Of a DNA stretch of 64,000 nucleotides, positions 1-64,000 are shown in pieces. The translations under genes were made by a program, and so were the position numbers. How positions within the stretch are numbered: position 1 is the first letter of the stretch; every line of letters begins with the position of its first letter. Source of the DNA: a virus; IMG/VR virus record IMGVR_UViG_3300020045_004291, positions 28,472-92,471 of that record. One strand, 5' to 3'. The notes under the pieces were generated by a model that saw only the letters and a list, made by a program, of their open reading frames with translations, ran no database searches and had not been told where the DNA came from.

Positions 1-44
1 CTTGTCGTTCCAATGATCTTCGCCGCTCTCATTATCTTATTTGC

Positions 45-440
45 GTTTCGGCTGGACTTTCACCCATGGTAGCTTACATGGCACGTCATAATGATCGTAT
101 CGCCCCGCCCCAGCCAATGGGTTCCTAAAGGCGGGAATTAGACAAAGCCGTCTGCCGGACGTAAAGCGGCTAAGTTTCGCGCTTCGGCGCACATAAGTTT
201 AGCTAGCGACCACCCCAGTCCGAAAATGGGGCCGCCAACGTAATCAGGGATTATGGGGCGCTGGCTAATAAGTTTGATCTGCGGTGCAAAACTTCCCCTG
301 CGCCTGTCTTTCGCCAGGATTAACACAGAGGATGAACCTAAGCGTAATGGCGAGGTTTCGCAGATCAAAACCAATCCCGCAAGGGTAGAGGGGCGACCTT
401 CCGAAAGACCTCAGCCGTTTCCCTCCGGCTGGGGTTTTTT
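45..440 (+). ncRNA. Large structured non-coding RNA (copy A), family unassigned
   Basis: 11-bp helix 273-283/359-369; long-range TCGCCCC 100-106/GGGGCGA 390-396; UUCG (179-190) and GCAA (376-385) tetraloop hairpins; ends in an intrinsic terminator; conserved in copy B with structure-preserving changes. Confidence 0.8.
408..440 (+). terminator. Rho-independent terminator ending ncRNA copy A
   Basis: CCTCAGCCG-N8-CGGCTGGGG followed by T6. Confidence 0.85.
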
Positions 441-504
441 GTGTCTTAAACCATATATTTAGATTTCTGATCTATTGTGGTTCTCATAGAAGAGGGAAAA
501 TTCT

Positions 505-1098
505 ATGAGATATCCAAACGCCGTTGGTGCAATCAACATCATTAATGTCAGCCTGTTAATCGCCCTGGGGATCGCCGTCACGGCACCAACTGTGCAGCCT
601 GACCAGTTTGTTACCTATGCCCCGCCGCCCGCCTTGGAGGTCGTATGGCCCACGCGTGAATTGATCGTGTATCCAGAGGTTGCCACCGTTTCAGGCGTTG
701 ACCTAATTAAACGCTTTGAAGGGCTGCGCTTGAAAGCGTATAAGTGCACGGCAAAACGCTGGACTATTGGTTATGGCCGCGCATATGGCGTCAAATCCGG
801 TCAGGTGATCACACAGGCCGAAGCTGACCGCATGTTGTCGGTTGACTACGCCAAAACAAAAAGCGCCGTCCTGAGTGCTGTAAAGGCCGATATCAGCGAT
901 CAACAAATAGAGGTATTGGTGTCGTTCGCGTATAACGTGGGGATTACGCGGTTCAAAGAATCCACTATGTTAAAAATGATCAATGCCGGTGACATGCGCG
1001 GCGCTCGCGATCAGTTCAGGTTCTGGATTCACGTTGACGGCCAGCCTATCGACGGCCTGATTAACCGCCGTGCAGAAGAGGCGGCGTTGTTTATTTAG
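505..1098 (+). CDS. GH24 phage lysozyme with N-terminal hydrophobic anchor and Pro-rich linker, antisense to the late operon
   Basis: IKRFEGLRLKAYKC..WTIGYG (E-x8-C-x5-T), SFAYNVG, GLINRRAEE motifs; GAGGG RBS. Confidence 0.9.
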   Translation: MRYPNAVGAINIINVSLLIALGIAVTAPTVQPDQFVTYAPPPALEVVWPTRELIVYPEVATVSGVDLIKRFEGLRLKAYKCTAKRWTIGYGRAYGVKSGQVITQAEADRMLSVDYAKTKSAVLSAVKADISDQQIEVLVSFAYNVGITRFKESTMLKMINAGDMRGARDQFRFWIHVDGQPIDGLINRRAEEAALFI

Positions 1099-1285
1099 CC
1101 AGTCCGAAAAATGTCTTTATCTGGGCTGCAAATATGCCGAACAGAACGCCAATGGTAGCCGCTCCACCAAGCACGAATTTTTGCCACGATACCAGATCGT
1201 CAATCTTCTTCTGGTGTGTCGCTTGCCACGCCTTTAAATCGTCGACATCTTTTTTTAACAGCGCAATCTGCGTTTCCGGCGTCAC
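1091..1285 (-). CDS. Small coiled-coil plus single-TM protein (holin/XhlA-like), last gene of the lysis cassette
   Basis: Heptad N-terminus then hydrophobic FVLGGAATIGVLFGIF; identical protein in unit B. Confidence 0.6.
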   Translation of the reverse strand: MTPETQIALLKKDVDDLKAWQATHQKKIDDLVSWQKFVLGGAATIGVLFGIFAAQIKTFFGLAK

Positions 1286-1755
1286 TTCCGCCCCACTTTA
1301 TGACGAGCCGCCACCCTATTATCAGGCAGGTTATGCAGATAAATATTACCAATATCTGCAATCACGATACCCAACCCCCAAACCATACTCGTTACAATTA
1401 GCGCCATAGTCAGGCCGTTGAGGCCCGCATAATAGCCGTAATGGCTTTCAGGCCGCATAAGCGCCGTCACAAGGTGCAGGGACAACATTCCGATATAAGC
1501 GCCCATGATCGGCCACCTAAGGTTTTTCGTGCGCTGCCCACGCCTTGCCACCAGCACGCATAATATCATACCGATGACATCTGCAATAGCATAAGTTGCT
1601 AATTGGCGCGGCAAAGGTATAAATTGCGATATGGCCTCACCAATTGCAAAGCCACCGACAAGCAACAATGAAAGCTTTTGTAGGGCGCGCGACGATCCCG
1701 CCCAAGCTATGAGCGCATTGGTGATTAGGGCGACGACCATGGCAACCGCTATCAA
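1282..1755 (-). CDS. Multi-pass membrane protein
   Basis: About 5 hydrophobic segments; 4-nt overlaps with neighbours; conserved in unit B. Confidence 0.7.
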   Translation of the reverse strand: MIAVAMVVALITNALIAWAGSSRALQKLSLLLVGGFAIGEAISQFIPLPRQLATYAIADVIGMILCVLVARRGQRTKNLRWPIMGAYIGMLSLHLVTALMRPESHYGYYAGLNGLTMALIVTSMVWGLGIVIADIGNIYLHNLPDNRVAARHKVGRK

Positions 1756-2030
1756 GGCTGTGTTTCCTCTTCGTCGTCCTTATTGGTGGTGTTGTTTGAG
1801 AATGCGACAACGCCATCACCGGATTCGTCTGCATAATCGATACCAAGCTTTTTAGCCGCTACGTGCAAGGCTTTGTGATGCCGACGCATGGCACGAACGA
1901 CATTCTTAGCCGCCGATGTGTCGTCGGATTCCGCCAGAAGTTCGTCAAGATAGATTTCCAGCACTGAGAGCGTCTCAGCGACCGGCTGGGCCTCTTTGGC
2001 GATAAAGGTTGATAGTTTCATTACATCCAT
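1752..2030 (-). CDS. Hypothetical protein
   Basis: Conserved in unit B with mostly synonymous changes. Confidence 0.7.
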   Translation of the reverse strand: MDVMKLSTFIAKEAQPVAETLSVLEIYLDELLAESDDTSAAKNVVRAMRRHHKALHVAAKKLGIDYADESGDGVVAFSNNTTNKDDEEETQP

Positions 2031-2046
2031 CCTTCAATATTACAGG

Positions 2047-2367
2047 TCAAGGCTTAGCTCCATTGGATAAATCGATTAAATCAACAAGGCCCTTGCGCTT
2101 CTCGTTGCATTCTATCAAAGCCGCCTCTTGATTGACAGAGGTTACAGCCATATTTTGCACCGCTGAAAACACTTCGTCCAATGAGGGATTTTCACTCAGG
2201 CGCGAAGGCAGATCAGGCCCAGTGCAAGCCGTCCTGAAATTGGCGGGAACGAATATCAGCGTCTTAGGGCTGGGTTGGGGTTTCCCCGCGCAACTCGTCA
2301 AGGCCAGCAAGCCAAGCGTTATAAGTGACGCCAATATCTTCGCATTTAGACGGGACGGGGATTTCAT
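2047..2367 (-). CDS. o-spanin-like lipoprotein (Rz1-like)
   Basis: Lipobox LLALTSC, Pro-rich, overlaps 3' end of the i-spanin gene. Confidence 0.75.
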   Translation of the reverse strand: MKSPSRLNAKILASLITLGLLALTSCAGKPQPSPKTLIFVPANFRTACTGPDLPSRLSENPSLDEVFSAVQNMAVTSVNQEAALIECNEKRKGLVDLIDLSNGAKP

Positions 2368-2614
2368 GAGTGATCACCTTGGCTTTTTCGCGGACGACTT
2401 TCACGCGGTCGATATATTTGGTGTCAATGACGATTGAAGCTTGCGCATTTATCAGCGATGTCTTAGCGGACGCCAGTTCACCCCCAAGGCGGGCTATATC
2501 TGCCTTCTGAGCGGCAATAACCTTTTCCTTGGCGTCAAGCTTCATATTGACGATAATGACGGTGCCAGCCAGCGTAAAGGCCGCAAGGGCTATAGCGAAT
2601 GTTTCCAGCTTCAT
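2264..2614 (-). CDS. i-spanin (Rz-like)
   Basis: N-terminal TM plus coiled coil, directly after the endolysin; start taken at MKLETF. Confidence 0.75.
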   Translation of the reverse strand: MKLETFAIALAAFTLAGTVIIVNMKLDAKEKVIAAQKADIARLGGELASAKTSLINAQASIVIDTKYIDRVKVVREKAKVITHEIPVPSKCEDIGVTYNAWLAGLDELRGETPTQP

Positions 2615-3090
2615 GAGACACCTTTCAGGCAAAGGTTACGCTCTGCGTTACGTCTGTTTAACAGGCCTTGCACGGGCTTTCCACCGGCAAAGCGCCACGC
2701 TAAGAACGCATCGCACCCGCCCTTGATGTCGCCAGCGTCAAACCTACGATCGACAGTCGATTTGCAATAGGCTTGCGTGCCGATGTTATAGGCTAGAGAA
2801 GTGGCTGCGGCTAAAACTTCGGGCTTGGATGCAATGGACGGCGTACACGCCATAACGGGTTTCATGTAGCGTTCACTGACGGCCTTTTTCAGCATGGCCT
2901 CGCACTCAGCGTCGGTATAATGGCGCATTTCGACTTGCGTTTCACCAAAGCACACAGTTTTTACATTGACGATATCAAAATATGGGTCGTTAATTTTCCC
3001 TTCCCACGGCATAATGACGCCAAGCGCAAGCGCCATTGCAGATCCGCCAATGAGTGCGGTTTGTGCCTTTGGTGGTATATTAAGCCGCAT
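2611..3090 (-). CDS. SAR-type endolysin (GH24)
   Basis: Gly/Ala-rich N-terminal TM followed by WEG..PYFDIVNVKTVCFGET, AYNIG, GLLNRR. Confidence 0.9.
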   Translation of the reverse strand: MRLNIPPKAQTALIGGSAMALALGVIMPWEGKINDPYFDIVNVKTVCFGETQVEMRHYTDAECEAMLKKAVSERYMKPVMACTPSIASKPEVLAAATSLAYNIGTQAYCKSTVDRRFDAGDIKGGCDAFLAWRFAGGKPVQGLLNRRNAERNLCLKGVS

Positions 3091-3370
3091 CCTTAACCCT
3101 CACCGTGCGAATGTTTTTCTGTGTCAGGTTTGCCGCCAGGGTAGACAGCACCATAAGCGCAATCGCAACGCAGATGACCGGCATAACCAGAGCCTCAGAC
3201 ATGCGGTTAAACGTGTAGAGGATACCCCACACACCAGACCACAGCGTATTGGCGATGTTAATTAAAACTGACCAACGAGTGATTGTGAGCCGCCAACCTG
3301 TTACCAAGTCCACCCAAAACGGGGGCTTTGGCAACGCGGTCAAGGTCGGGCGTGTGTATGGGGCTTTCAT
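3080..3370 (-). CDS. Putative holin
   Basis: Two TM segments, basic C-terminus, immediately upstream of the endolysin; start set from the unit B homologue. Confidence 0.65.
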   Translation of the reverse strand: MKAPYTRPTLTALPKPPFWVDLVTGWRLTITRWSVLINIANTLWSGVWGILYTFNRMSEALVMPVICVAIALMVLSTLAANLTQKNIRTVRVKDAA

Positions 3371-3371
3371 G

Positions 3372-5930
3372 TTAAGGATAGGCCGCCGTTGGAAGTGCCC
3401 AAAGGTCAGCATATTCCATCATCACAGCGGGCAAGAGTCCAGTAGCCTGGTTGTGCTGCATGTACCAACGCACATTTCCTGTACTATAGAAGTGGTTGTG
3501 ATCTAGGTTAAATTCGCTGATTTGACGCGGAAGGGGATGCTTGACTGGCGAACCCCATGCCGCACCGGTCAGACCATCTGCGCTGGTATAACTGACAAGA
3601 TCGCCCGGTGTATTTACGTAGTTAACCGAGTTTGACGTGTAGCCAGTCCCGAAGATTATCTCCACGGCCCCCGAAGGAGTAGAATAGATAGTCGGACGCG
3701 AGTAGTCAGGGAACGCTGTGACTGGGGTGCGCGTCAGGTTTGACACCTGAGTTGTGGTGGTAACACCGGCGGACGTGACCGAGATGTGATGAAGCTGGGT
3801 ATTTCCAGTTAAATCATCCTGCATGAACGCCACGTGAAGTGTTCCTGAACTATCCAAGAAAGATGAGTTCTGGTTCATATTCCGTGCGTTGGTAGTAAGC
3901 AGCAGGTCTTCATCCGCAAGGACGATAGGCAATGGATACACAGCCCCGCTACGCTTAACCCACTGGTTAGACGCTTTGAGGTACTTGGCATAATAAACGT
4001 TCGAGTTGGTGCTCCCCCCAGTCCGGTTTGTCCACGTCATGTAGATATTACCCGACGCATCGAATGACAGGGTGTTGATATACGGCCCGGATGCCCCGGA
4101 AATTGTTGTCGCAATACCGCCTAGACGCGACCATGTAGACGTTGCCTCGTCATAGACATTCATATGCACGGTGCCATTGCCCGATACACCGTCTCTGTAC
4201 ACAAACAAAAGTTGGCCGGTATCAGGAAAATTGTAGAACTGTGGATATGTGACCTGTGTCTCATTAACACCTGTCATGGTGTTAATGGGGGTCATCACGC
4301 TAGTATCATAGGCTAATGAACTCTTAGAGTAGACCATGGGCGCGCCGTGCATGTTGTTACACACATGGACAAAACCGTTACGATCTACGCCAAGTGATAC
4401 CACGTTGTGCGCGTCATCGCCGGCTTGGGTGCGGGTAAGAAGCGTCTTGCGCCACGTTACGCCCCCATCCTGCGAACGAACAATCGCCTGCTTGCGGTCA
4501 TGTTGCCACACACCGGCGTACATATTGCCGGAAGCTTCACGGAACGGTGTCGCGTATATGTTACTTTGCAGAGCGTTCCCGCCATGCTCGATAAGGGTAA
4601 CGTTTGACGGATACTGCGACTGCATAGAGGAGGGTGGTGTGGTCTTGTATGGATGACCCGCCGCTAAAACGCTCTGGATATTGTATTTGAAGGCTATAAT
4701 ACCCTCTATGATCTGTCTAAGCGAGTCGCTTAGAGCAGAAGGGAATACAAGGATCATAGCGATCCCACCATTGATGTATTGGCCTGCACCACGGCCCGCC
4801 TCGCAGATGCGGAAAGGCAGGGCGGCCTTATTAAGGGTGCCAGTGATCGTAGTGGGGGTACCGGCTACACCGTTTTTATATACAGTGATGGCTGACGCCG
4901 AGCATGTTGTAGATAGGATGGCAACCTCACCGCTTATTAGATTGGATGCGGCTGAGGCCGCAAAGGCTGTACCAGCGTCGTTAAATGCGGCGGCCCCCGG
5001 TATTGCAGATGCGTTAATGTTTATCATCTGGTTACCACGGGATGCCAGACCTGTAGCGTCCTGAGAGACAAACACCCCCTGCACCGATCCGGTTGCGGGC
5101 ACCCTATACACTGTGAAGGCTGTCCATTCTCCCGTACTGGCGCTGCATAGCTGTGCAGAAGCGGCTGTGGCCATAAAGGATGGCGATGCACTCCAAAGAT
5201 ATTTGTAACCGTTCAGTGTGTTTACGTTAACAACTGGTCGGTTAGCATCTGTGGCTTGCGTAATGTCATAAGCACTATTTGACTTATCAATCGCAGCGCT
5301 GATTTTACCAGAAGTTTCGGTCACCCACTCAGTTGTACCGAAATCCAAATCAAGTGAGGGCAAGCCAACCCGCGAATAAATCGGTGCATAGGTTGTAATG
5401 GTTGTCAGTGCCGCAACAACCGCAGAAGTTGCCGCGCTAGACGCAGAGTTTGATCCGATTAAGTTAATTGCGGCAACGTTACACGTTAAGGTGTGTCCAA
5501 TATCGCCAGTCACAGGCACATAAGTTGCTGATGTAGCGCCTGAAATTGGCGTTACGACATCAAACCAGAACCATTGGTAGGTGTATGATGTTGGAGAATT
5601 TGTCCACGTTCCATTTGTTGTTGTCAGGGTTGATCCAACCGTTGCGGAACCAGACACCACAGGAGCAACTGTGTTTACAGGAGCGCCCGCAATGCTTGAT
5701 TGACCATAAAGCGCCAAGCTCTCAAACTCGACCACAGCCTCACAGGTGATGGCCGCACCGATATCACCAGAGACAAGCGTGTAGGTGACGCTCGTTTCAC
5801 CGCTGATGTCCACGCCGTCCCGTTGCCATTGATAGGTTGGCGTAGGAGCTCCCGGCCATGCAATGACCGTTGCCCGCAGAACGGAGCCGACCGTGTTATT
5901 ACCTGTGACGACTACGCGAGTCCGTGCCAT
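3372..5930 (-). CDS. Virion-associated carbohydrate-binding/degrading protein: 2 Ig-like domains, LamG-like domain, BNR_4 (PL24-like) beta-propeller
   Basis: PVNTVAPVVSGSATVGSTLT/YQW Ig repeats; DDAHNVVSLGVDRNGFVH..NNMH and TYPQF..LFVYRDG motifs. Confidence 0.7.
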   Translation of the reverse strand: MARTRVVVTGNNTVGSVLRATVIAWPGAPTPTYQWQRDGVDISGETSVTYTLVSGDIGAAITCEAVVEFESLALYGQSSIAGAPVNTVAPVVSGSATVGSTLTTTNGTWTNSPTSYTYQWFWFDVVTPISGATSATYVPVTGDIGHTLTCNVAAINLIGSNSASSAATSAVVAALTTITTYAPIYSRVGLPSLDLDFGTTEWVTETSGKISAAIDKSNSAYDITQATDANRPVVNVNTLNGYKYLWSASPSFMATAASAQLCSASTGEWTAFTVYRVPATGSVQGVFVSQDATGLASRGNQMININASAIPGAAAFNDAGTAFAASAASNLISGEVAILSTTCSASAITVYKNGVAGTPTTITGTLNKAALPFRICEAGRGAGQYINGGIAMILVFPSALSDSLRQIIEGIIAFKYNIQSVLAAGHPYKTTPPSSMQSQYPSNVTLIEHGGNALQSNIYATPFREASGNMYAGVWQHDRKQAIVRSQDGGVTWRKTLLTRTQAGDDAHNVVSLGVDRNGFVHVCNNMHGAPMVYSKSSLAYDTSVMTPINTMTGVNETQVTYPQFYNFPDTGQLLFVYRDGVSGNGTVHMNVYDEATSTWSRLGGIATTISGASGPYINTLSFDASGNIYMTWTNRTGGSTNSNVYYAKYLKASNQWVKRSGAVYPLPIVLADEDLLLTTNARNMNQNSSFLDSSGTLHVAFMQDDLTGNTQLHHISVTSAGVTTTTQVSNLTRTPVTAFPDYSRPTIYSTPSGAVEIIFGTGYTSNSVNYVNTPGDLVSYTSADGLTGAAWGSPVKHPLPRQISEFNLDHNHFYSTGNVRWYMQHNQATGLLPAVMMEYADLWALPTAAYP

Positions 5931-26945: not shown

Positions 26946-29260
26946 TGCGATAAAACGAACCTTTCCGCCAGTCCGCCAGCAACTTTTGCTTTAAATTCCT
27001 CACGAAACGCTAGACCCTCCGAAACCATTGCGTCAAGCTCTTTTTTTATGTCTTCGCGTTTGTATTTACGCAGCCTGTTAGCGATCACGCCGAGGGTTTC
27101 TCCGTCCCCATCGATCACATTTGCGATCTTTGAACGAAGCGCGAGCTTTGGTGCGTCCTTAACGCGGTCATTAGAGGTCACAAGGCGGGCCTTGTCGTCA
27201 ATGTCGCGTCTGACCAAGGCAAAGGCCCAACGGACATGTTCAACCGTCCTACGGCCTTCAGGGACGGCAAGAATTAGGCTTACCTTACTCACTAGCTCAT
27301 ATGCCCCCAGATACAGCGCCTCAAGCCCCGTACGCGCCTTGTGGTCAACCGCCTGATCCTCAAACCAGTCTAAGGCGTCGTCCATCATGTCAGCCGCCCT
27401 GGTGTCCGTTGGAATGACGTTCAGGTCGCCATAGTGTTCAACGCGACCTGAACCCTCCATATCGTAATCTCCGCCCGTGTATAACTGGCAGAATGTTACA
27501 GCCATGGCCGACGACATAGGAACCCGCGTGAACCCCCTTTTAGACCGCGGAGCGGTTTCACGTTCCTGAAAGATCAGTGCGCGCCCTATGAAGCCATTGG
27601 CCGCAGACTGATAATCAACAAGATCGTCAAATGTAACTGGCGTTGTAAACCCCATGAGAGACAAAAAAGGACGTTCCAAGCCACGATCTAAGCCCGCAAG
27701 TGTTTTTTGCACCTGCGTGATTCTTTGTTTCCCCCAGCTTGGGAGGTCGCCGGAATCATCTTGTTTGTTCAGTGCCGACAATTCCTTGATTTGTTGCGCC
27801 CTGATATCCTCCTTCATGTCGCCGGTGAGCAACATAAACCCGGACGCTTTGGAGTATGCAGACATTAACATCCCGATGACGCCATCGAGATAAGCAGCGC
27901 CGCCCTTTTGTTGAGCATTCTTAACTTTGTTTAGGAATATACCCACCTCATCTATGAGGTAAAACGCGGCTTGGTTGCGGACAAGGTTTTTAACTATCTC
28001 CTGTTCTGACTTGATAGCGCCGTGTGTGGCGGGTGCACAGCCAGCCGCCCTGTGTATTTCAGATACCGCCTGTTGTATGGCCTCCTTGCCGGTGCGGGAG
28101 CCAGCAACGCAGAAGCTGAAAAGGTTGGTTGTCACGCCGTCCCTGTCATCCGTGTAGCGCAGGCCAGAGATGTTACCCACAGCCATAAGTGCAGCCGCCG
28201 CAGAAAGCTTGCGCCGTGGTCTGCGAGACTGGTTTTCGATCCACTCTGCAACCTTGCCGACAAAGCCCGGAGGACAAGACAAATCAACGCCGGAAAGATC
28301 AAATGGTAAGCCGTCTTTGCGGGCCTCAACCGGTTCGCTAAAATCAAACTCAGCGCCGCCCGTGAATGTAACCGGCATTACCCAGCCGCCTGCCTCAGCA
28401 TAGTGCACCAATGTGCCAAGCGTTACGGGATTAGCCGACCGACCGAAGCTGTGCCATTTATAAACCATTACGCCGTCGTCGTGCTTGCTGGACTGTGAAG
28501 ACCAATGATCCCACAATTCAAAGCCGGTGCCGCCTGTGGCGTGGTGTATGGCCATGCCGATTCTAATCCACGTCTCATAGTCAAGGTCATCATTTTTAAA
28601 GTATGAGAGCATCTCAGCAAGGTCAGCGTGCGACACGTCAACCGCCTGCCCGTCATAGTCTGCCCTGTGGCGGTCTGGGCGACGAAGGAGGTCTATAAGC
28701 CCCTGTGGTGCATCCTCGACATCGTCAGGGCCACCAACACCTATTTCGTAGTAATTGCCGCTTACATGTTTAGAGCCTGGGCCGATAACAAAGCCGTTTG
28801 CCTTGAAATCAATCCCCGGCAATTCTGGCATATGCTGCACAAGTGAAACGCCGTCAGGAGCGCGGAAATACAAGTGCCGCGAACCACCACCAGAGCCGGT
28901 CTTAACGATCATGCCAGCCCCTGATATCTGGGGAACCATGTCGCAAAGCTTGGCAAACGATTCAACGCCACCGTTGCGCGCGTCAACGTCAACGACCAGC
29001 AACCCGTTGCAGAGCACACCGAAGCCGTTTTCAAATTGGTCATACTCGACCATGTTATCTATTTGCTCATCATCCCAAAGCGGCGTGTGTTGCCAGTTGG
29101 ACGCCACAGGGTGTTTAAAGTACGCCGTGCACGATGGATTTCCACATTCGCACATTATTCCCGATTTAGTTTTGCGCGCACCCTGAATCGGGAAAACCCT
29201 ATAACCGGCCTGCCAAAACTCATAAGCATACCGTGCCGCTAAACCCTTATCTTTAGTCAT
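26939..29260 (-). CDS. Bifunctional primase-polymerase with PriCT-2 and C-terminal helicase-like domain
   Basis: CECG..C..KHP, VVDVD, TGSGG..HLYF, GIDFK, YETWIRIGMA, AGSRTGKE, IDEVG. Confidence 0.88.
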   Translation of the reverse strand: MTKDKGLAARYAYEFWQAGYRVFPIQGARKTKSGIMCECGNPSCTAYFKHPVASNWQHTPLWDDEQIDNMVEYDQFENGFGVLCNGLLVVDVDARNGGVESFAKLCDMVPQISGAGMIVKTGSGGGSRHLYFRAPDGVSLVQHMPELPGIDFKANGFVIGPGSKHVSGNYYEIGVGGPDDVEDAPQGLIDLLRRPDRHRADYDGQAVDVSHADLAEMLSYFKNDDLDYETWIRIGMAIHHATGGTGFELWDHWSSQSSKHDDGVMVYKWHSFGRSANPVTLGTLVHYAEAGGWVMPVTFTGGAEFDFSEPVEARKDGLPFDLSGVDLSCPPGFVGKVAEWIENQSRRPRRKLSAAAALMAVGNISGLRYTDDRDGVTTNLFSFCVAGSRTGKEAIQQAVSEIHRAAGCAPATHGAIKSEQEIVKNLVRNQAAFYLIDEVGIFLNKVKNAQQKGGAAYLDGVIGMLMSAYSKASGFMLLTGDMKEDIRAQQIKELSALNKQDDSGDLPSWGKQRITQVQKTLAGLDRGLERPFLSLMGFTTPVTFDDLVDYQSAANGFIGRALIFQERETAPRSKRGFTRVPMSSAMAVTFCQLYTGGDYDMEGSGRVEHYGDLNVIPTDTRAADMMDDALDWFEDQAVDHKARTGLEALYLGAYELVSKVSLILAVPEGRRTVEHVRWAFALVRRDIDDKARLVTSNDRVKDAPKLALRSKIANVIDGDGETLGVIANRLRKYKREDIKKELDAMVSEGLAFREEFKAKVAGGLAERFVLSQG

Positions 29261-34679: not shown

Positions 34680-35048
34680 TCATTCCGCCGCCTCCCTCAT
34701 TATTCTTGTGGCGCGCGGCGTGTTTCTTTCCAGCTTGGCGACCATTGGCTTTTCTGTAAGATAAATAATATCGCGTCCCAGTTTCACCCTGTCAAACTCT
34801 TCAATTCGGCGGCACCCGTAAATTACCGCCGTGTGATCCCTGTTGCAGTACTCGCCTATTTTTTCGTAACTCCACCCCAATTCTCGCAAATCACGCATGA
34901 CGCGGAATCTTGCAAAGGCAATTTTTGCGGTTCGCTCTTTATTTTCAAATTCTGCAACGCTGATACCGTATTTTTGGCAATACTCAGCGACAATCTGATT
35001 ACGGCGGTGGAATCCCACCATTTCCTTTTTGTGAAATGACTGCATCAC
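34680..35048 (-). CDS. Stand-alone DnaA domain IV-like HTH protein
   Basis: R..IAFAR..M..LRELGWSYEKIG..NRDHTAVIYG. Confidence 0.8.
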   Translation of the reverse strand: MMQSFHKKEMVGFHRRNQIVAEYCQKYGISVAEFENKERTAKIAFARFRVMRDLRELGWSYEKIGEYCNRDHTAVIYGCRRIEEFDRVKLGRDIIYLTEKPMVAKLERNTPRATRIMREAAE

Positions 35049-35812
35049 CGCCCCGCATATCTGCGCAGATCGTGCGCAAGGCGTTTAACATTGATAGTAT
35101 CGCGCACATATAACGCCCTATGGTGCGGGCAATATGAAGAGCCAGGATCAACCCTGTGACCGCAATAAACCGCCTCGTTATGCTCGTTGCGACCCTCAAC
35201 TGATTTGCATTGAAAGCGCCCAATCTGCACAAGGTTTTCACCCGTGGCAATGGGCAGATACGACAGGTCAGGCGTTTTAATTAGGGTGGACGCATCCCTG
35301 ACACCGTGCAAAGACTTAGTTGTAGGACTAGGCTTTGGCTTATCCTTTTCTTTCACCTTTGCCTTACCCAAAATGGACGGCAATTGCTGCAATCTTTTTG
35401 ACCCAAAAGCTGGAAACGAATGACCCTGTTGTTTTAGGCGATCAACCACACCGGCGACAGTGGATCGTGTCAGGTTGGTCTCAAATTTTTCATGGAACAA
35501 AACCATGACCTCATTGTAGCTTTTACCGGCCTGAACCAGTTCGCGTATGAAATCTTTTTGCTCCTTTGGCCAAGCGCCAGAGCGGCAAGATTGCCTTGCC
35601 GGTGTTGCCCCGAAGGTCTGATCGGTTTTCCCGCTATAGCGCATCTCGCCAAGCTTTGATTGACAATTCTTCATGGTTCTGACTATGCGCTTGCCATGAA
35701 ATTCATCATTTAGTCGTAGCGCCGCATATTTTGACGTTGCGCCTGATTTCGCCAGTTCTAACAGGCGTTCAGCCTCTTGCGGCTTCCACTCTGTTTTGCA
35801 CATTACTGCCAT
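35045..35812 (-). CDS. gcrA: GcrA-like transcription regulator with duplicated N-terminal HTH
   Basis: W..E..L..G.S..TRSTVAGVVDRL and C-terminal C..YCG..GSSYCPHH..Y. Confidence 0.75.
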   Translation of the reverse strand: MAVMCKTEWKPQEAERLLELAKSGATSKYAALRLNDEFHGKRIVRTMKNCQSKLGEMRYSGKTDQTFGATPARQSCRSGAWPKEQKDFIRELVQAGKSYNEVMVLFHEKFETNLTRSTVAGVVDRLKQQGHSFPAFGSKRLQQLPSILGKAKVKEKDKPKPSPTTKSLHGVRDASTLIKTPDLSYLPIATGENLVQIGRFQCKSVEGRNEHNEAVYCGHRVDPGSSYCPHHRALYVRDTINVKRLAHDLRRYAGR

Positions 35813-36602: not shown

Positions 36603-36887
36603 TCATGATTCACCTAATGCTTTGGAGATTGCGCGGGACTGAAAAGATGCCTTAGCCCGTGCCAAGTCATTGATTATTGCCCGGTTTGTCACTGCGTTCT
36701 TCACAAGAAAGGTTACGGCATCAGCGATGCGAAAAACCATTTTTATGCTTGGGTTTGCCTTGCCTGACAGAATTTCCGACAAATAGCTATTAGGTATCCC
36801 GACTTGCGCGGCAATATCTTTTTGTGGAAATCTGCTTTGTTTAATCAGTTCGGCAAGCTTGCCTATGGGGTCAATGTCGTGTGTCAA
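36603..36887 (-). CDS. XRE-family HTH regulator
   Basis: QKDIAAQVGIPNSYLSEILSGKANPS; AGGAG RBS. Confidence 0.85.
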   Translation of the reverse strand: MTHDIDPIGKLAELIKQSRFPQKDIAAQVGIPNSYLSEILSGKANPSIKMVFRIADAVTFLVKNAVTNRAIINDLARAKASFQSRAISKALGES

Positions 36888-42041: not shown

Positions 42042-42447
42042 GTTTCGGCTGGACTTTCACCCATGGTAGCTTACATGGCACGTCATAATGATCGTATCGC
42101 CCCGCCCCAGCCAATGGGTTCCTAAGGCGGGAATTAGACAAAGCCGTCTGCCGGACGTAAAGCGGCCAAGTTTCGCCAGAGATGGCCTGTAAGGGAAATA
42201 AAATGTCAGAAGAGATCCACCCCAGTCCAAAAATGGGGTCGCCAACGTAATCAGGGATTATGGGGCGCTGGCTAATAAGTTTGATCTGCGGGCTTTTCAC
42301 GTCCCCTGCACCTGTCGTTCGTCAGGATTAACACAGAGGATGAACCTAAGCGTAATGGCGAGGTTACGCAGATCAAAACCATCCCGCAAGGGTAGAGGGG
42401 CGACCTTCCGAAAGACCCTAGCCGTTTCCCTCCGGCTGGGGTTTTTT
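42042..42447 (+). ncRNA. Large structured non-coding RNA (copy B)
   Basis: Same helices as copy A; UUCG hairpin replaced by GCCA-GAGA-TGGC (42175-42186); terminator 42416-42447. Confidence 0.8.
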
Positions 42448-42511
42448 GTGTCTTAAACCATATATTTAGATTTCTGATCTATTGTGGCTTTCATAGAAGA
42501 GGGAAAATTCT

Positions 42512-43105
42512 ATGAGATATCCGAACGCCGTTGGCGCAATCAACATCATTAACGTCAGCCTGTTAATCGCCCTGGGGATCGCCGTCACGGCACCAACTGT
42601 GCAGCCTGACCAGTTTGTTACCTATGCCCCGCCACCCGCCTTGGAGGTCATATGGCCCAAGCGCGAATTGATCGTGTATCCAGAGGTTGCCACAGTTTCG
42701 GGCATTGACTTGATTAAACGCTTTGAGGGGCTGCGCTTGAAGGCATATAAATGCACGGCAAAACGCTGGACGATTGGTTATGGCCGCGCATATGGCGTAA
42801 AATCCGGTCAGGTGATCACACAGGCCGATGCTGATCGCATGTTGTCGGTTGACTACGCCAAAACAAAAAGCGCCGTCCTGAGTGCTGTAAAGGCCGATAT
42901 CAGCGATCAGCAAATAGAGGTGTTGGTGTCTTTCGCGTATAACGTGGGGATTACGCGGTTCAAAGAATCCACCATGTTAAAAATGATCAACGCCGGTGAC
43001 CTGCGTGGCGCGCGCGATCAATTCAGGTTTTGGATTCACGTAGACGGCCAGCCTATCGACGGCCTGATTAACCGCCGTGCAGAAGAGGCCGCGTTGTTTA
43101 TTTAG
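42512..43105 (+). CDS. GH24 membrane-anchored lysozyme (copy B)
   Basis: 5 conservative substitutions relative to 505-1098. Confidence 0.9.
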   Translation: MRYPNAVGAINIINVSLLIALGIAVTAPTVQPDQFVTYAPPPALEVIWPKRELIVYPEVATVSGIDLIKRFEGLRLKAYKCTAKRWTIGYGRAYGVKSGQVITQADADRMLSVDYAKTKSAVLSAVKADISDQQIEVLVSFAYNVGITRFKESTMLKMINAGDLRGARDQFRFWIHVDGQPIDGLINRRAEEAALFI

Positions 43106-43292
43106 CCAGTCCGAAAAACGTCTTTATCTGGGCTGCGAAGATTCCGAACAGAACGCCAATGGTAGCAGCGCCACCAAGCACAAACTTCTGCCATGAAACC
43201 AGATCGTCAATCTTCTTCTGATGTGTCGCCTGCCAAGCCTTTAGGTCGTCCACATCTTTTTTTAATAGCGCAATCTGCGTTTCCGGCGTCAC
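43098..43292 (-). CDS. Coiled-coil plus TM protein (copy B)
   Basis: Identical protein to 1091-1285. Confidence 0.65.
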   Translation of the reverse strand: MTPETQIALLKKDVDDLKAWQATHQKKIDDLVSWQKFVLGGAATIGVLFGIFAAQIKTFFGLAK

Positions 43293-43762
43293 TTCCGCCC
43301 CACTTTATGACGAGCCGCCACCCTATTATCAGGCAGGTTATGCAGATAAATATTACCAATATCTGCAATCACGATACCCAACCCCCACACCATACTCGTT
43401 ACAATTAGCGCCATAGTAAGGCCGTTGAGGCCTGCATAATAGCCGTAATGGCTCTCAGGCCGCATGAGCGCCGTCACAAGGTGCAAGGACAACATGCCGA
43501 TATAAGCGCCCATGATCGGCCACCTAAGGTTTTTCGTGCGCTGCCCACGCCTTGCCACCAGCACGCATAATATCATACCGATGACGTCCGCAATAGCATA
43601 AGTTGCTAATTGGCGCGGCAAAGGTATAAATTGAGATATAGCCTCGCCGATGGCAAAGCCACCAATCAGGAGCAGAGAAAGCTTTTGTAGGGCGCGCGAC
43701 GATCCAGCCCACGCTATGAGCGCATTAGTGATTAAGGCTACGACCATGGCGACAGCTATCAC
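43289..43762 (-). CDS. Multi-pass membrane protein (copy B)
   Basis: Homologue of 1282-1755. Confidence 0.7.
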   Translation of the reverse strand: MIAVAMVVALITNALIAWAGSSRALQKLSLLLIGGFAIGEAISQFIPLPRQLATYAIADVIGMILCVLVARRGQRTKNLRWPIMGAYIGMLSLHLVTALMRPESHYGYYAGLNGLTMALIVTSMVWGLGIVIADIGNIYLHNLPDNRVAARHKVGRK

Positions 43763-44031
43763 GGCTGTGTTTCCTCTTCGTCGTCGTCCTTATTCGTGGT
43801 GTTGTTTGAGAACGCGACAATTCCGTCGCTGGATTCGTCAGCGTAATCGATACCAAGCTTTTTAGCCGCTACATGCAAGGCCTTGTGGTGACGACGCATG
43901 GCACGAATTACGTTTTTAGCGGCTGACGTGTCATCTGATTCCGCCAGGAGTTCATCAAGATAGATTTCCAGCACTGAGAGCGTCTCAGCGACCGGCTGGG
44001 CCTCTTTGGCAATAAAGGTTGATAATTTCAA
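43759..44031 (-). CDS. Hypothetical protein (copy B)
   Basis: Homologue of 1752-2030. Confidence 0.7.
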   Translation of the reverse strand: MKLSTFIAKEAQPVAETLSVLEIYLDELLAESDDTSAAKNVIRAMRRHHKALHVAAKKLGIDYADESSDGIVAFSNNTTNKDDDEEETQP

Positions 44032-44348
44032 GGCTTCGCTCCATTGGATAAATCGATTAAATCAACAAGGCCCTTGCGCTTCTCGTTACATTCTACCAGT
44101 GCAGCCTCTTGATTGACAGAGGTTACAGCCATATTTTGCACCGCTGAAAACACTTCATCCAATGAGGGATTTTCACTCAGGCGCGAAGGCAGATCAGGCC
44201 CCGTGCATGCCGTCCTGAAATTGGCAGGAACAAAGATCAGCGTTTTAGGGCTGGGCTGGGGTTTCCCTGCGCAATTCGTCAAGGCCAGCAAGCCAAGTGT
44301 TATAAGTGACGCCGATATCTTCGCATTTAGACGGTACGGGGATTTCAT
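44028..44348 (-). CDS. o-spanin-like lipoprotein (copy B)
   Basis: LLALTNC lipobox. Confidence 0.75.
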   Translation of the reverse strand: MKSPYRLNAKISASLITLGLLALTNCAGKPQPSPKTLIFVPANFRTACTGPDLPSRLSENPSLDEVFSAVQNMAVTSVNQEAALVECNEKRKGLVDLIDLSNGAKP

Positions 44349-44595
44349 GAGTGATAACCTTGGCTTTTTCGCGAATGACTTTCACGCGGTCGATATATTG
44401 GGTATCAATGACAATCGAGGCCTCAGCATTGGCCAGCGAGTTCTTAGCTGATGCCAGTTCGCCACCAAGGCGGGCAATATCGGCCTTCTGGGCGGCAATA
44501 ACCTTTTCCTTGGCGTCAAGCTTCATATTGCCGATGCAGACGCTACCGGCCAGCGTAAAGGCCGCAAATGCAATAGCGAATGTTTCCAGCTTCAT
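44245..44595 (-). CDS. i-spanin (copy B)
   Basis: Homologue of 2264-2614. Confidence 0.75.
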   Translation of the reverse strand: MKLETFAIAFAAFTLAGSVCIGNMKLDAKEKVIAAQKADIARLGGELASAKNSLANAEASIVIDTQYIDRVKVIREKAKVITHEIPVPSKCEDIGVTYNTWLAGLDELRRETPAQP

Positions 44596-45074
44596 GAGAC
44601 ACCTTTCAGGCATAGGTTACGTTCTGCGGCCCGCCTGTTTGTCAGGCCCCGCACCTCACGGCCCCCCGCGCGATTCCACATCATGAACGCATCGCACCCG
44701 CCTTTGATATCGCCAGCATCAAACCTACGATCCACGGTAGACTTGCAATAGGCTTGCGTGCCGATATTATAGGCTAGAGACGTAGCCGCCGCCAAGACTT
44801 CTGGCTTTGATGCAATGGACGGCGTACACGCCATGACGGGTTTCATATAGCGTTCGCTGACAGCCTTTTTCAGCATTGCCTCGCACTCAGCGTCGCTGTA
44901 GTAACGATCCTGCACATTTTGAGTCTCACCAAAGCACACAGTTTTTACATTGACGATATCAAAATATGGATCGTTTTCCTTCCCTTCCCACGGCATAATG
45001 ACGCCAAGCGCAAGCGCCATCGCAGAGCCGCCAATGAGTGCGGTTTGTGCTTTTGGTGGTATATTAAACCGCAT
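44592..45074 (-). CDS. SAR endolysin (copy B)
   Basis: Homologue of 2611-3090 with two divergent patches. Confidence 0.9.
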   Translation of the reverse strand: MRFNIPPKAQTALIGGSAMALALGVIMPWEGKENDPYFDIVNVKTVCFGETQNVQDRYYSDAECEAMLKKAVSERYMKPVMACTPSIASKPEVLAAATSLAYNIGTQAYCKSTVDRRFDAGDIKGGCDAFMMWNRAGGREVRGLTNRRAAERNLCLKGVS

Positions 45075-45354
45075 CCTTAACCCTCACTGTGCGAATGTTC
45101 TTTTGTGTCAGGTTCGCCGCAATGGTGGACAGCACCATAAGCGCAATGGCCACACAGATGACCGGCATGACCAGAGCCTCAGACATGCGGTTAAACGTGT
45201 ATAGAATGCCCCACACACCCGACCACAGCGTATTGGCGATGTTTATAAGCACGCTCCATTTACGCATAGTCAACGACCAACCTGTTACCAAGTCCACCCA
45301 GATGGGAGGCTTTGGCAACGCGGTCAGGGTTGGGCGTGTGTACGGGGCTTTCAT
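45064..45354 (-). CDS. Putative holin (copy B)
   Basis: Homologue of 3080-3370. Confidence 0.65.
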   Translation of the reverse strand: MKAPYTRPTLTALPKPPIWVDLVTGWSLTMRKWSVLINIANTLWSGVWGILYTFNRMSEALVMPVICVAIALMVLSTIAANLTQKNIRTVRVKDAV

Positions 45355-63872: not shown

Positions 63873-64000
63873 GGAAGATCAGTAAAAGGATATTCTTGCC
63901 TTACTATCGCTAGTTCTGGTTTTGTTCCCCTAATAAAATCAATGATATCAATATCTTATATATATAATAGATTAAGATTAGTAAGATCAGTTCAATTTTT
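63873..64000. other. Start of the putative replication origin (copy B)
   Basis: Matches ~26566-26700 apart from a short iteron deletion. Confidence 0.7.

Follow-up and report, generated by a model that had tools for sequence, protein, structure and literature searches.

A folded non-coding RNA, an intrinsic terminator and a predicted start-codon hairpin precede an accessory GH24 lysozyme gene in a phage genome

Organization of the locus

The window analysed here is a stretch of 64,000 nt, positions 28,472 to 92,471 of the IMG/VR virus record IMGVR_UViG_3300020045_004291. Near its left end lies an RNA of ~395 nt that ends in an intrinsic terminator, and 63 nt further on begins lys2, a gene for a GH24 lysozyme (Table 1); the initial annotation had placed a lysozyme gene about 65 nt behind the RNA. 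lys2 is read in the same direction as the rightward, early-side operon. The virion genes and the late operon are on the other strand, and that annotation had likewise placed the lysozyme gene opposite the late genes. The stop codon of lys2 (1096–1098) creates an 8-nt overlap with the end of the convergent ORF 1091–1285. The overlap had been reported as one with the last lysis gene; the overlap itself is present, but the label "lysis" finds no footing, as the ORF has no family match in Pfam or PHROG. Between the two copies of the locus described below, this ORF carries 18 synonymous and no amino-acid differences.

The full holin, SAR endolysin and spanin cassette assigned to 2047–3370 is indeed there, and lys2 is separate from it. 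Within the cassette, the i-spanin and o-spanin genes overlap by 104 nt, and the N-terminal segment of the SAR-type endolysin has a Kyte-Doolittle value of 1.64 and a Gly/Ala/Ser/Thr content of 53%. The 157-aa protein encoded downstream of the spanins evolves with a dN/dS of 0.03 and resembles only unnamed viral proteins. ORFs 1091–2030 and lys2, which meet at the junction of the converging operons, are lineage-specific and missing from related phages.

Table 1. Coordinates of features at the locus and in its second copy
Feature	Position	Strand	Basis or description
Structured non-coding RNA body, orphan	45–406	+	Indels, constraint, fold z
5′ end segment CGGCUGG, candidate antiterminator strand	49–55	+	Copy of terminator 3′ arm
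Variable hairpin 1	166–209	+	Different stem-loop per copy on a common conserved base
3′ domain	273–369	+	10–11-bp long-range helix 273–283/359–369; RNAalifold consensus, local folds
Second variable loop, in 3′ domain	284–293	+	RNAalifold consensus, local folds
Intrinsic terminator	405–442	+	Predicted 13-bp stem 405–417/426–438, 8-nt loop
A+T-rich spacer	443–481	+	No sigma-70-like promoter
Translation-start hairpin	482–510	+	Predicted 10 bp, 482–491/501–510
lys2, 197 aa	505–1098	+	PF00959, PHROG endolysin, PDB sequence/fold matches, dN/dS
Lys2 anchor, residues 7–25	523–579	+	Hydropathy
Lys2 Pro-rich linker, residues 26–62	580–690	+	Hydropathy
Lys2 GH24 domain, residues 63–197	691–1095	+	PF00959, AlphaFold2
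Lys2 catalytic triad, E72, C81, T87	718–720, 745–747, 763–765	+	Translation
Last minus-strand operon gene, 64 aa	1091–1285	−	Coiled-coil and C-terminal TM
Accessory five-TM protein, 157 aa	1282–1755	−	ORF, hydropathy; downstream of spanins
Accessory acidic protein, 92 aa	1752–2030	−	ORF; downstream of spanins
o-Spanin, lipobox LTSC	2047–2367	−	Canonical lysis cassette
i-Spanin	2264–2614	−	Canonical lysis cassette
SAR-type GH24 endolysin	2611–3090	−	E-x8-D-x5-T, Gly/Ala-rich N-terminal segment
Holin candidate, two-TM	3080–3370	−	Canonical lysis cassette
Second cassette copy	42042–43105	+	RNA 42042–42452, lys2 42512–43105
Copy 2 terminator arms	42414–42424/42433–42443	+	Predicted fold

In the 92,471-bp record, a phage genome of ~42 kb is present ~2.2 times in tandem, in copies that are not identical, and the segment 45–3370 recurs at 42042–45354 with ~90% identity. 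The two units recognized in the initial annotation are therefore two sibling genomes, and a repeat within one phage is ruled out. The record breaks off within a 121-nt repeat that does not vary between copies; together with the tandem of non-identical genomes, this is compatible with an assembler that circled through strain variants. The cassette is not an assembly artefact, as neither copy is disrupted and another contig, of 19,131 bp, encodes a third variant of the Lys2 protein (P0122, 97% identical). Its description as conserved applies among these near-identical siblings, namely the two copies and the 97%-identical third protein, and not beyond them, as 79 related phage records lack it. 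By portal protein (P0127), the closest phage is 69% identical; the host is probably a Caulobacter-like bacterium. The phage gene annotation includes no integrase, and position 45 was rejected as a prophage end or att site, the homology break there being a 114-nt indel inside colinear genomes.

The RNA is non-coding and constrained at the nucleotide level

Four frame-breaking indels (1, 11, 1 and 1 nt) separate the two RNA copies, so that 45–442 is non-coding and a protein-coding reading is ruled out. Outside two swapped hairpin blocks, the copies show 11 point differences in 355 nt, versus 27 differences at 139 synonymous sites of lys2 (Fisher p 1e-8), which amounts to a change ~seven times slower than that of neighbouring synonymous sites. 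Elsewhere in the phage, non-coding stretches are poorly conserved between copies. Divergence climbs steadily from the RNA through lys2 to ORF 1091–1285, so recombination history could explain part of the conservation of the RNA, which from the sequences at hand is conserved among close kin only.

Better-than-shuffled folding is confined to the plus strand, with z-scores of −2.96 and −2.35, compared with −1.54 on the minus strand. In local folds, variable hairpin 1 of copy 1 is a 10-bp stem plus GCGC-UUCG-GCGC, while in copy 2 GGCCA pairs with UGGCC and encloses UUUC-GCCA-GAGA; the replaced block supplies a matching partner for the T171C change. By eye, copy 2 can alternatively be read as GCCA-GAGA-UGGC. 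In the fixed alignment of the two ~90%-identical copies, no pair carries a double compensatory change, and a test of the placement of the point changes, free of circularity, gives p 0.078, a weak signal from two copies.

An intrinsic terminator and a candidate antiterminator strand

The terminator has a G-C core (407–417/426–436), and its folding energy is −20.3 kcal/mol in one copy and −21.0 kcal/mol in the other. Six consecutive U occupy 435–440, with the last two U 3′ of the stem, and in both copies the G+C-rich hairpin leads directly into this U-tract, as in intrinsic terminators. The terminator is strong, and most transcripts should therefore end there. It is not among the results listed by a simple terminator scan. 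A UC-to-CU swap at 411–412 leaves both positions paired (G-U or G-C), on the plus strand only.

The segment 49–55 has two predicted pairing options, either with 411–417 (7 bp) in the 5′ arm of the terminator or with 397–406, which closes the fold. In nascent RNA, before the 3′ arm of the terminator exists, the minimum-energy fold pairs 49–55 with 411–417 in both copies; in the full-length RNA, the terminator is favoured over this pairing by 13 kcal/mol. These folding predictions make 49–55 a candidate antiterminator strand of a terminator switch. The element is a single 7-mer without covariation that forms in about half of the trials in which the interior of the RNA was shuffled, and since it persists under shuffling it says nothing about the large fold.

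The spacer and the start-codon hairpin

The G+C content of 441–504 is 31%, versus 51% for the genome, and these 64 nt contain two substitutions between the copies. Neither the spacer nor the sequence immediately before position 45 contains a sigma-70-like promoter, according to a sigma-70 scan that phage-specific promoters would escape. The −10-like TATTGT at 474–479 has no −35 element and falls below the scan threshold, and no spacer motif recurs elsewhere in the genome as a repeated promoter motif.

At the end of the spacer, a predicted hairpin encloses the translation start of lys2. Specifically, its loop, GAGGGAAAA, holds the Shine-Dalgarno sequence, while the AUG (505–507) is positioned within the stem and pairs with 485–487 in both copies. 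The hairpin has folding energies of −13.7 and −10.8 kcal/mol and z-scores of −3.3 and −2.5 in the two copies, and the C483U change retains its pair as G-U. The start signals are thus predicted to lie inside a stable helix, the hallmark of masking of the T4 gene e type. No extended complementarity connects the RNA with the lys2 start region, the duplex being weaker than shuffled controls, and the search for trans targets among phage transcripts returned one 12-mer only, as expected by chance.

lys2 encodes an intact GH24 lysozyme

Lys2 matches PF00959 over residues 69–192 and the full profile (1–125) with an E-value of 3.3e-40 and a score of 137.7 bits, versus a curated cut-off of 22.3, and its PHROG match is endolysin (2e-50). 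The motif E-x8-C-x5-T that had been proposed for it can be read directly from the sequence as E72-x8-C81-x5-T87, and E72 and T87 are invariant in a 47-sequence alignment. The AlphaFold2 model, with pLDDT >90 for residues 63–197 and <50 for the linker, matches 6et6, 6h9d, 9kbs, 3hde, 1xjt and T4 lysozyme with a Foldseek probability of 1.00, and the predicted fold is that of a two-lobed lysozyme. The two copies differ by 32 nt and five amino acids (V47I, T50K, V65I, E106D, M164L), with a dS of 0.22 and a dN/dS of 0.05, in accordance with the purifying selection and five conservative substitutions noted initially. lys2 is an intact, selected GH24 gene.

The N-terminal hydrophobic anchor and Pro-rich stalk of the same account correspond to a single hydrophobic segment, residues 7–25 (Kyte-Doolittle 2.28, 32% Gly/Ala/Ser/Thr), followed by residues 26–62. 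SAR segments are weakly hydrophobic and rich in Gly/Ala/Ser/Thr, belong to the catalytic domain or abut it directly, and refold into it; by a crude hydropathy measure the Lys2 segment is of another kind, and a 37-residue Pro-rich linker separates it from the catalytic domain. Lys2 contains one Cys only, so disulfide caging is impossible. The anchor-plus-stalk architecture is nothing special: the layout of N-terminal anchor, linker and GH24 domain recurs elsewhere, many GH24 proteins having N-terminal anchors or signal peptides unrelated to that of Lys2, and relatives of the phage encode C-terminally anchored GH24 proteins with the GH24–Pro-rich–TM order of SpmX. The nearest relatives of Lys2 outside its own cluster are at most 53% identical, in the catalytic domain only. 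SpmX, which ranks sixth among the PDB matches, is ruled out by sequence as the nearest relative.

Searches for the RNA and for second GH24 genes

Rfam gave no family at gathering scores over the whole window, and at E ≤ 10 over positions 1–600 the best scores were at most 16 bits, in the terminator region only. ARAGORN detected no tRNA or tmRNA in the RNA region. The RNA had no blastn match in 50,697 phage records; four exact 20–24-mers were absent from IMG/VR, one 24-mer was absent from 185,579 species genomes, and one 20-mer gave a single chance match in JGI metagenomes, inside an ATPase gene. BLAST likewise found no RNA in 39 portal-related and 40 primase-related viral records, in 401 genomes from the family to which the Asticcacaulis MAG belongs, or in 14 genomes that carry related prophages, one of them unpublished and supporting no claim made here. 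A 31-nt match (L222) in related viral records sits in coding DNA. Covariance model R1, built for the 3′ domain, recovers both copies at E 1e-30 and matches nothing beyond their own record. A sensor domain conserved across diverged genomes, as expected of a riboswitch, was seen in none of the collections searched.

No second GH24 gene was found in the 79 related phage records (two different GH24 genes in 0/79), in the 14 genomes with related prophages or in the 401 family genomes. Within the collections searched, the gated arrangement thus appears in this phage lineage only.

Discussion

We tentatively favour, with somewhat less than even confidence, a reading in which 45–510 is a long cis-acting leader that gates an accessory Sec-exported muramidase. 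Transcripts would arrive from the early-side, rightward operon or start at an unrecognised promoter immediately before the RNA, yielding a highly folded RNA that normally ends at the terminator. A minority of transcripts would read through, either when 49–55 captures 411–417 rather than pairing with 397–406 to close the fold, or when termination is suppressed by a phage factor. No antiterminator protein was recognised by Pfam match among the upstream proteins; the 302-aa and 141-aa proteins encoded there match neither Pfam nor PHROG, and a novel antiterminator is possible. In readthrough transcripts, the start codon of lys2 would be held inside the 10-bp hairpin, so that translation would be throttled as well. 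The hydrophobic segment of Lys2 would insert into the inner membrane, with the ~37-residue linker keeping the intact GH24 domain in the periplasm. Because no terminator lies between the converging units, late, heavy minus-strand transcription would pass antisense through lys2 and silence it late in infection. We infer that small amounts of Lys2 would be produced ahead of the late phase, apart from the pinholin–SAR endolysin–spanin cassette. The initial annotation had suggested control of the lysozyme by readthrough, which is plausible in view of the spacer without a sigma-70-like promoter, the AUG-burying hairpin and the 7-bp pairing between the 5′ end and the terminator arm, the three features that are new here. 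The non-lytic role proposed in the same annotation, such as wall remodelling, exclusion or lysis timing, is a hypothesis.

The start hairpin invites comparison with T4 gene e. In early transcripts of that gene, a start-site hairpin cuts lysozyme synthesis ~100-fold (PMC3014915; McPheeters et al. 1986), and late promoters start inside the inhibitory hairpin, freeing the start site (PMC3014915). In both cases, transcripts from an earlier unit upstream would reach a phage lysozyme gene whose start hairpin, predicted in ours, masks initiation. Unlike in T4, the AUG lies in the stem and the Shine-Dalgarno sequence in the loop, a 395-nt folded RNA and a terminator precede the gene, and Lys2 is an extra, by sequence probably exported, enzyme and not the sole endolysin.

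The T4 late promoters are also a precedent for a different reading, possible though unlikely, in which the RNA is a free-standing terminated transcript, with a role in trans or none, and lys2 is transcribed from its own promoter in the spacer. For example, the −10-like TATTGT (474–479) is suitably placed for transcripts that would start inside the 5′ arm of the hairpin and so free the AUG. The strength of the terminator and the low G+C content of the spacer are in line with such an arrangement, as is the place of the RNA, between the last genes of a rightward operon and a gene of the lysis type. This place mirrors lambda, where the layout is Q-PR′-tR′-S/R and the terminated leader is the lambda 6S RNA. 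In Stx phages, the PR′ transcript left by early termination of the Shiga toxin transcript is likewise reported to act as a small regulatory RNA (PMC7547250). The likeness to the lambdoid PR′-tR′ unit, a short terminated transcript that closes the rightward early operon just ahead of the lysis-type gene or genes, holds equally for the proposed leader, because in both readthrough decides expression. However, neither a Q-type antiterminator upstream nor a PR′-like promoter was found here, the RNA has twice the length and much more structure, a single gene follows, and the virion genes are on the opposite strand. The free-standing reading is further weakened by the sigma-70 scan, by spacer motifs that occur once in the genome, and by the chance-level complementarity of the RNA to phage transcripts and to the lys2 start.

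Unlikely in our judgement is a reading without a dedicated RNA function, in which the RNA is the structured 3′ end of the rightward operon, with a terminator that insulates convergent units, and lys2, gained at a variable junction, serves ordinary lysis as an accessory or back-up endolysin. The converging-operon junction does carry lineage-specific genes, the active site of Lys2 is intact, tethered GH24 enzymes are the sole endolysin in relatives, and the statistical support for the RNA structure is modest. However, the slow change of 355 nt exceeds what a terminator needs and contrasts with the other non-coding stretches of the phage, and the replaced hairpin still gives a stem-loop at the same position. 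In addition, lys2 is ill-placed for a late endolysin, on the opposite strand and behind a terminator and a start-codon hairpin, and none of the 79 related records pairs two different GH24 genes. A DNA-level element (packaging site, origin or recombination site) or a chimeric assembly, as the odd tandem ending in an identical repeat might suggest, is very improbable, given wobble-compatible changes valid for plus-strand RNA only, a block that closes with a terminator and U-tract, terminase genes, and hence any pac site, ~22 kb away, replication genes 26–33 kb away, and the intact copies with their third protein variant on another contig.

Returning to the cis-acting leader, riboswitch and attenuator leaders such as the ydaO c-di-AMP class precede cell-wall hydrolase genes. 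The locus shares with them a folded leader, a terminator, a short spacer, a wall-hydrolase gene and a possible terminator/antiterminator choice; unlike them, it has no Rfam match, its leader is two to three times the usual aptamer length, and its two near-identical copies define no conserved aptamer. An extended version of the leader reading is doubtful: the RNA would be the first known representative of a novel class of large cis-acting switches in phages of stalked alphaproteobacteria, in which the multi-helix fold senses a signal, competition between the closing helix and the terminator arm sets readthrough, and a periplasmic tethered muramidase is dosed before lysis, for example for wall remodelling or exclusion. 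Should the large fold turn out to have a sensor function, the known large structured RNAs would gain a phage-borne class.

An exported lysozyme made at the wrong time is dangerous, and three stacked brakes appear to guard lys2, namely the terminator, the masked start codon and convergent antisense transcription. If true, a lethal gene would here be controlled through RNA at several levels, a compact example from nature. Built on two near-identical DNA copies, the case is a good lead and not a result.

In the protein, the Cys that replaces the triad Asp is also found in P1 Lyz. D20C variants of T4-type lysozymes are reported to stay active (10.1101/418723). With SAR endolysins (P1 Lyz, phage 21 R) and the Sec-secreted Lys44 of Oenococcus phage fOg44 (reviewed in PMC6116005), Lys2 shares the T4-type fold and an N-terminal hydrophobic segment, and holin-independent export to the wall compartment would be expected. 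Lys2 departs from SAR endolysins in its long linker and in its segment, which exceeds that of the phage's own SAR-type enzyme in hydrophobicity and contains less Gly/Ala/Ser/Thr; moreover, the phage encodes a true SAR endolysin besides Lys2. SpmX of Caulobacterales combines a phage-derived GH24 domain, a Pro-rich linker and membrane segments (10.1101/418723; PDB 6H9D), and its cleft is described as remodelled (E11/D20L/T26M; 10.1101/418723). Lys2 has the same three elements and a likely host in the same clade, and 6H9D is its second-best fold match, but its domain order is reversed, with the anchor first, and the E/C/T triad is kept; no homology was found beyond the catalytic domain. Phages of stalked alphaproteobacteria share the clade in which a phage GH24 domain became the domesticated SpmX, and the GH24 enzymes of related phages sit on Pro-rich tethers in both orientations, which bears on the question of a phage origin for the SpmX architecture.

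The RNA–lys2 cassette in a repeated phage genome

The window covers positions 28472–92471 of an IMG/VR virus record of 92,471 bp. Self-comparison of the whole record reveals a ~42-kb phage genome in ~2.2 head-to-tail copies that are 6–15% different. Two units (89.6% identical) lie in the window; a third also contains the RNA, the second lysozyme gene (lys2) and the lysis cassette, and its virion genes have no DNA-level match to the other units. Host DNA is absent from the record, and an integrase was not found in the phage genome. Either a genuine tandem or an assembler walking round strain variants could account for the record, whose end falls within a 121-nt stretch identical in all three copies (e.g., window 26583–26703 = 63880–64000).

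The initial annotation described a non-coding RNA followed by a GH24 lysozyme gene that converges on the lysis-side operon and overlaps its last ORF by 8 nt, alongside a complete canonical lysis cassette. This description holds, and its support is now stronger. Three conserved accessory ORFs of no known function lie between the lysis cassette and lys2. Elsewhere, ~1.2 kb separating the primase gene from the small genes ahead of the terminase contains no ORF of at least 80 codons and is mostly non-homologous among genome copies. A 267-aa protein encoded next to the small terminase gene matches MptE-like 6-hydroxymethylpterin diphosphokinase below threshold (PF01973; 33.6 bits, cut-off 34.6).

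Positions of features in the window
Feature	Position	Strand	Remark
Units	45–3370; 42042–45354
RNA and lys2, copy 2	42042–43105
RNA, copy 1	45–442	+	terminator 405–442
20-codon ORF	66–128	+	starts MVAYMARH
Replaced blocks in RNA	179–209; 282–293
12-mer	215–226; 1099–1110
Start-codon hairpin	482–510	+	predicted
lys2, copy 1	505–1098	+
Last lysis-side ORF	1091–1285	−	64 aa
Canonical lysis cassette	2047–3370	−	o-spanin, i-spanin, SAR-type GH24 endolysin, holin candidate
267-aa protein	23132–23935	−
ORF-poor region	25687–26938
GcrA-domain protein	35045–35809	−
Small HTH regulator	36603–36887		faces plus-strand operon whose end is the RNA
Minus-strand block		−	primase, then terminase, portal and tail genes, then lysis genes
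Plus-strand blocks		+	Sak4, SSB, exonuclease, helicase, PAPS-reductase-like gene

The RNA is non-coding and constrained

Four indels (1, 11, 1 and 1 nt) between the two window copies of the RNA disrupt every reading frame, indicating that the RNA is non-coding. With the two replaced blocks left out, the copies show 11 point differences in 355 nt, far fewer than lys2 (27 of its 139 synonymous sites differ; Fisher p = 1e-8 versus the RNA), the ORF at 1091–1285 (18 of 45 synonymous sites) or the coding block upstream of the RNA (only 89% identical), which shows constraint at the nucleotide level. Divergence climbs steadily from 3% in the RNA through dS 0.14 and 0.27 in the first and second parts of the lysozyme gene to 0.58 in ORF 1091–1285, and part of the RNA's conservation signal may come from recombination history.

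The plus-strand fold is better than those of shuffled sequences in both copies (z −2.96 and −2.35); the minus strand is not (z −1.54). The first replaced block is a hairpin swap, in which a conserved GCGGC base common to both copies carries different stem-loops, and T171C finds a matching new partner in the swapped hairpin. In the terminator, UC is replaced by CU with both pairs preserved by G–U, which is valid for a plus-strand RNA only. Comparison of the two copies reveals no double compensatory change at any fixed pair, and point changes avoid paired bases only weakly (p = 0.078, with the fold predicted for copy 1 by itself). No Rfam family matches the RNA. On balance, a structured plus-strand RNA is fairly likely to be real.

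The 20-codon ORF in the RNA lies within an 81-nt stretch identical in both copies and retains its stop although 1 nt is deleted at position 127; a clear Shine-Dalgarno sequence is lacking. The 12-mer CCAGTCCGAAAA is present at two sites, the loop region of a hairpin in the RNA and the stretch immediately 3′ of the lysozyme stop codon, within the convergent ORF; ~1 such genome match is expected by chance, and a G-to-A change in the second RNA copy breaks the match. In just one copy, a 114-nt insertion immediately 5′ of the conserved block of the RNA (record 28403–28515, ending at window 44) carries a Shine-Dalgarno-led 32-codon ORF extending into the first bases of the RNA. In the copy without it, the last small ORF stops 35 nt 5′ of the RNA.

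Putative brakes on lys2 expression

The RNA ends in a predicted 13-bp hairpin (11-bp G–C core, ~−20 kcal/mol); six consecutive U span the hairpin's 3′ end and extend just past it. The 63-nt spacer to lys2 is A+T-rich (31% G+C), and a scan detected no σ70-like promoter in it or just upstream of position 45. Positions 482–491 are predicted to form a perfect 10-bp stem with 501–510, placing the AUG inside the 3′ arm and the Shine-Dalgarno sequence, GAGGGAAAA, in the loop. This hairpin is stronger than shuffles in both copies (z −3.3 and −2.5), and its sole stem substitution, C483U, keeps the pair. The same logic operates in T4 gene e early transcripts, where a start-site hairpin cuts lysozyme synthesis ~100-fold (PMC3014915).

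The first conserved RNA bases, 49–55 (CGGCUGG), repeat the terminator's 3′ arm and, in the lowest-energy fold of the nascent transcript, pair with its 5′ arm (411–417) in both copies; in the finished RNA, the terminator plus a closing helix (46–51/401–406) is favoured by 13 kcal/mol. Because the alternative pairing is a single 7-mer and still forms in half of trials with a shuffled interior, we treat it only as a hypothetical antiterminator. The predicted AUG-masking hairpin, the spacer's lack of a σ70-like promoter and this candidate antiterminator were absent from the initial annotation.

Since no minus-strand terminator-like site was found in 1–3500, late minus-strand transcripts probably traverse lys2 antisense. 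Our favoured mechanism, consistent with all of these features, is that the RNA would be a cis-acting leader throttling an exported muramidase through three brakes: termination at the RNA's 3′ end, masking of the lys2 start codon by the hairpin, and late antisense transcription through lys2. Precedents exist for each element; what is new is how they are combined, and the large orphan RNA itself.

The ORF at 1091–1285, the last one of the lysis-side operon, has a C-terminal TM segment, and its 18 synonymous and zero amino-acid differences between copies mark its predicted product as a very strongly conserved small protein.

lys2 encodes a complete GH24 lysozyme

The lys2 product is a complete GH24 lysozyme (Pfam match 3.3e-40; relatives with solved structures at 1.6e-28), and its confident predicted model resembles prophage muramidases, SpmX, R21, P1 Lyz and T4 lysozyme. 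The triad is E72/C81/T87, a Cys variant that is frequent among phage enzymes and reported active (10.1101/418723). Consistent with the purifying selection proposed earlier, dN/dS between copies is 0.05 and third positions hold 27 of 32 changes; a third variant, on a separate contig, is 97% identical.

Residues 1–62 have no homologue among 1.84 billion representative proteins. Residues 7–25 are clearly hydrophobic and have less SAR character than the SAR-type endolysin of this phage, and the Pro-rich linker is of low confidence in the predicted model. Unrelated N-terminal anchors, signal peptides or lipoboxes with linkers are found on many GH24 proteins, and the anchor–linker–GH24 layout is nothing unusual.

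Host and distribution of the cassette

A GcrA cell-cycle-regulator domain (PF07750, 6.9e-11), in a protein with an additional weak HNH match, and portal relatives (44–64% identity) in Asticcacaulis and Caulobacteraceae assemblies point to an alphaproteobacterial host, probably within Caulobacterales.

Among 39 portal-related viral records (40–62% identity), a single GH24 gene is present in seven and two GH24 genes in none. GH24 occurs in 8 of 40 primase-related records (53–67%), where the sole double hit is one gene repeated at both record ends. Neither BLAST nor a model of the RNA's 3′ domain, which recovers both own copies at E = 1e-30, detected the RNA in these 79 records, and the closest prophage (Asticcacaulis assembly) has neither RNA nor second lysozyme. 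The cassette, initially described as conserved, is therefore an accessory specific to this lineage, located at a variable junction.

In phages with related portals, what looks like the sole lysozyme is a GH24 protein with a Pro-rich linker and C-terminal TM segments, arranged in the same domain order as SpmX, a polarity protein of Caulobacterales. These proteins bear on whether phages gave rise to the SpmX architecture, a question left open in 10.1101/418723. One or two C-terminal TM segments follow the linker in L128 (1198–1935, minus strand) and L129–L133, all loci in portal-related records; in L131 and L132 the poly-Pro tracts are long and the C terminus contains two hydrophobic segments.
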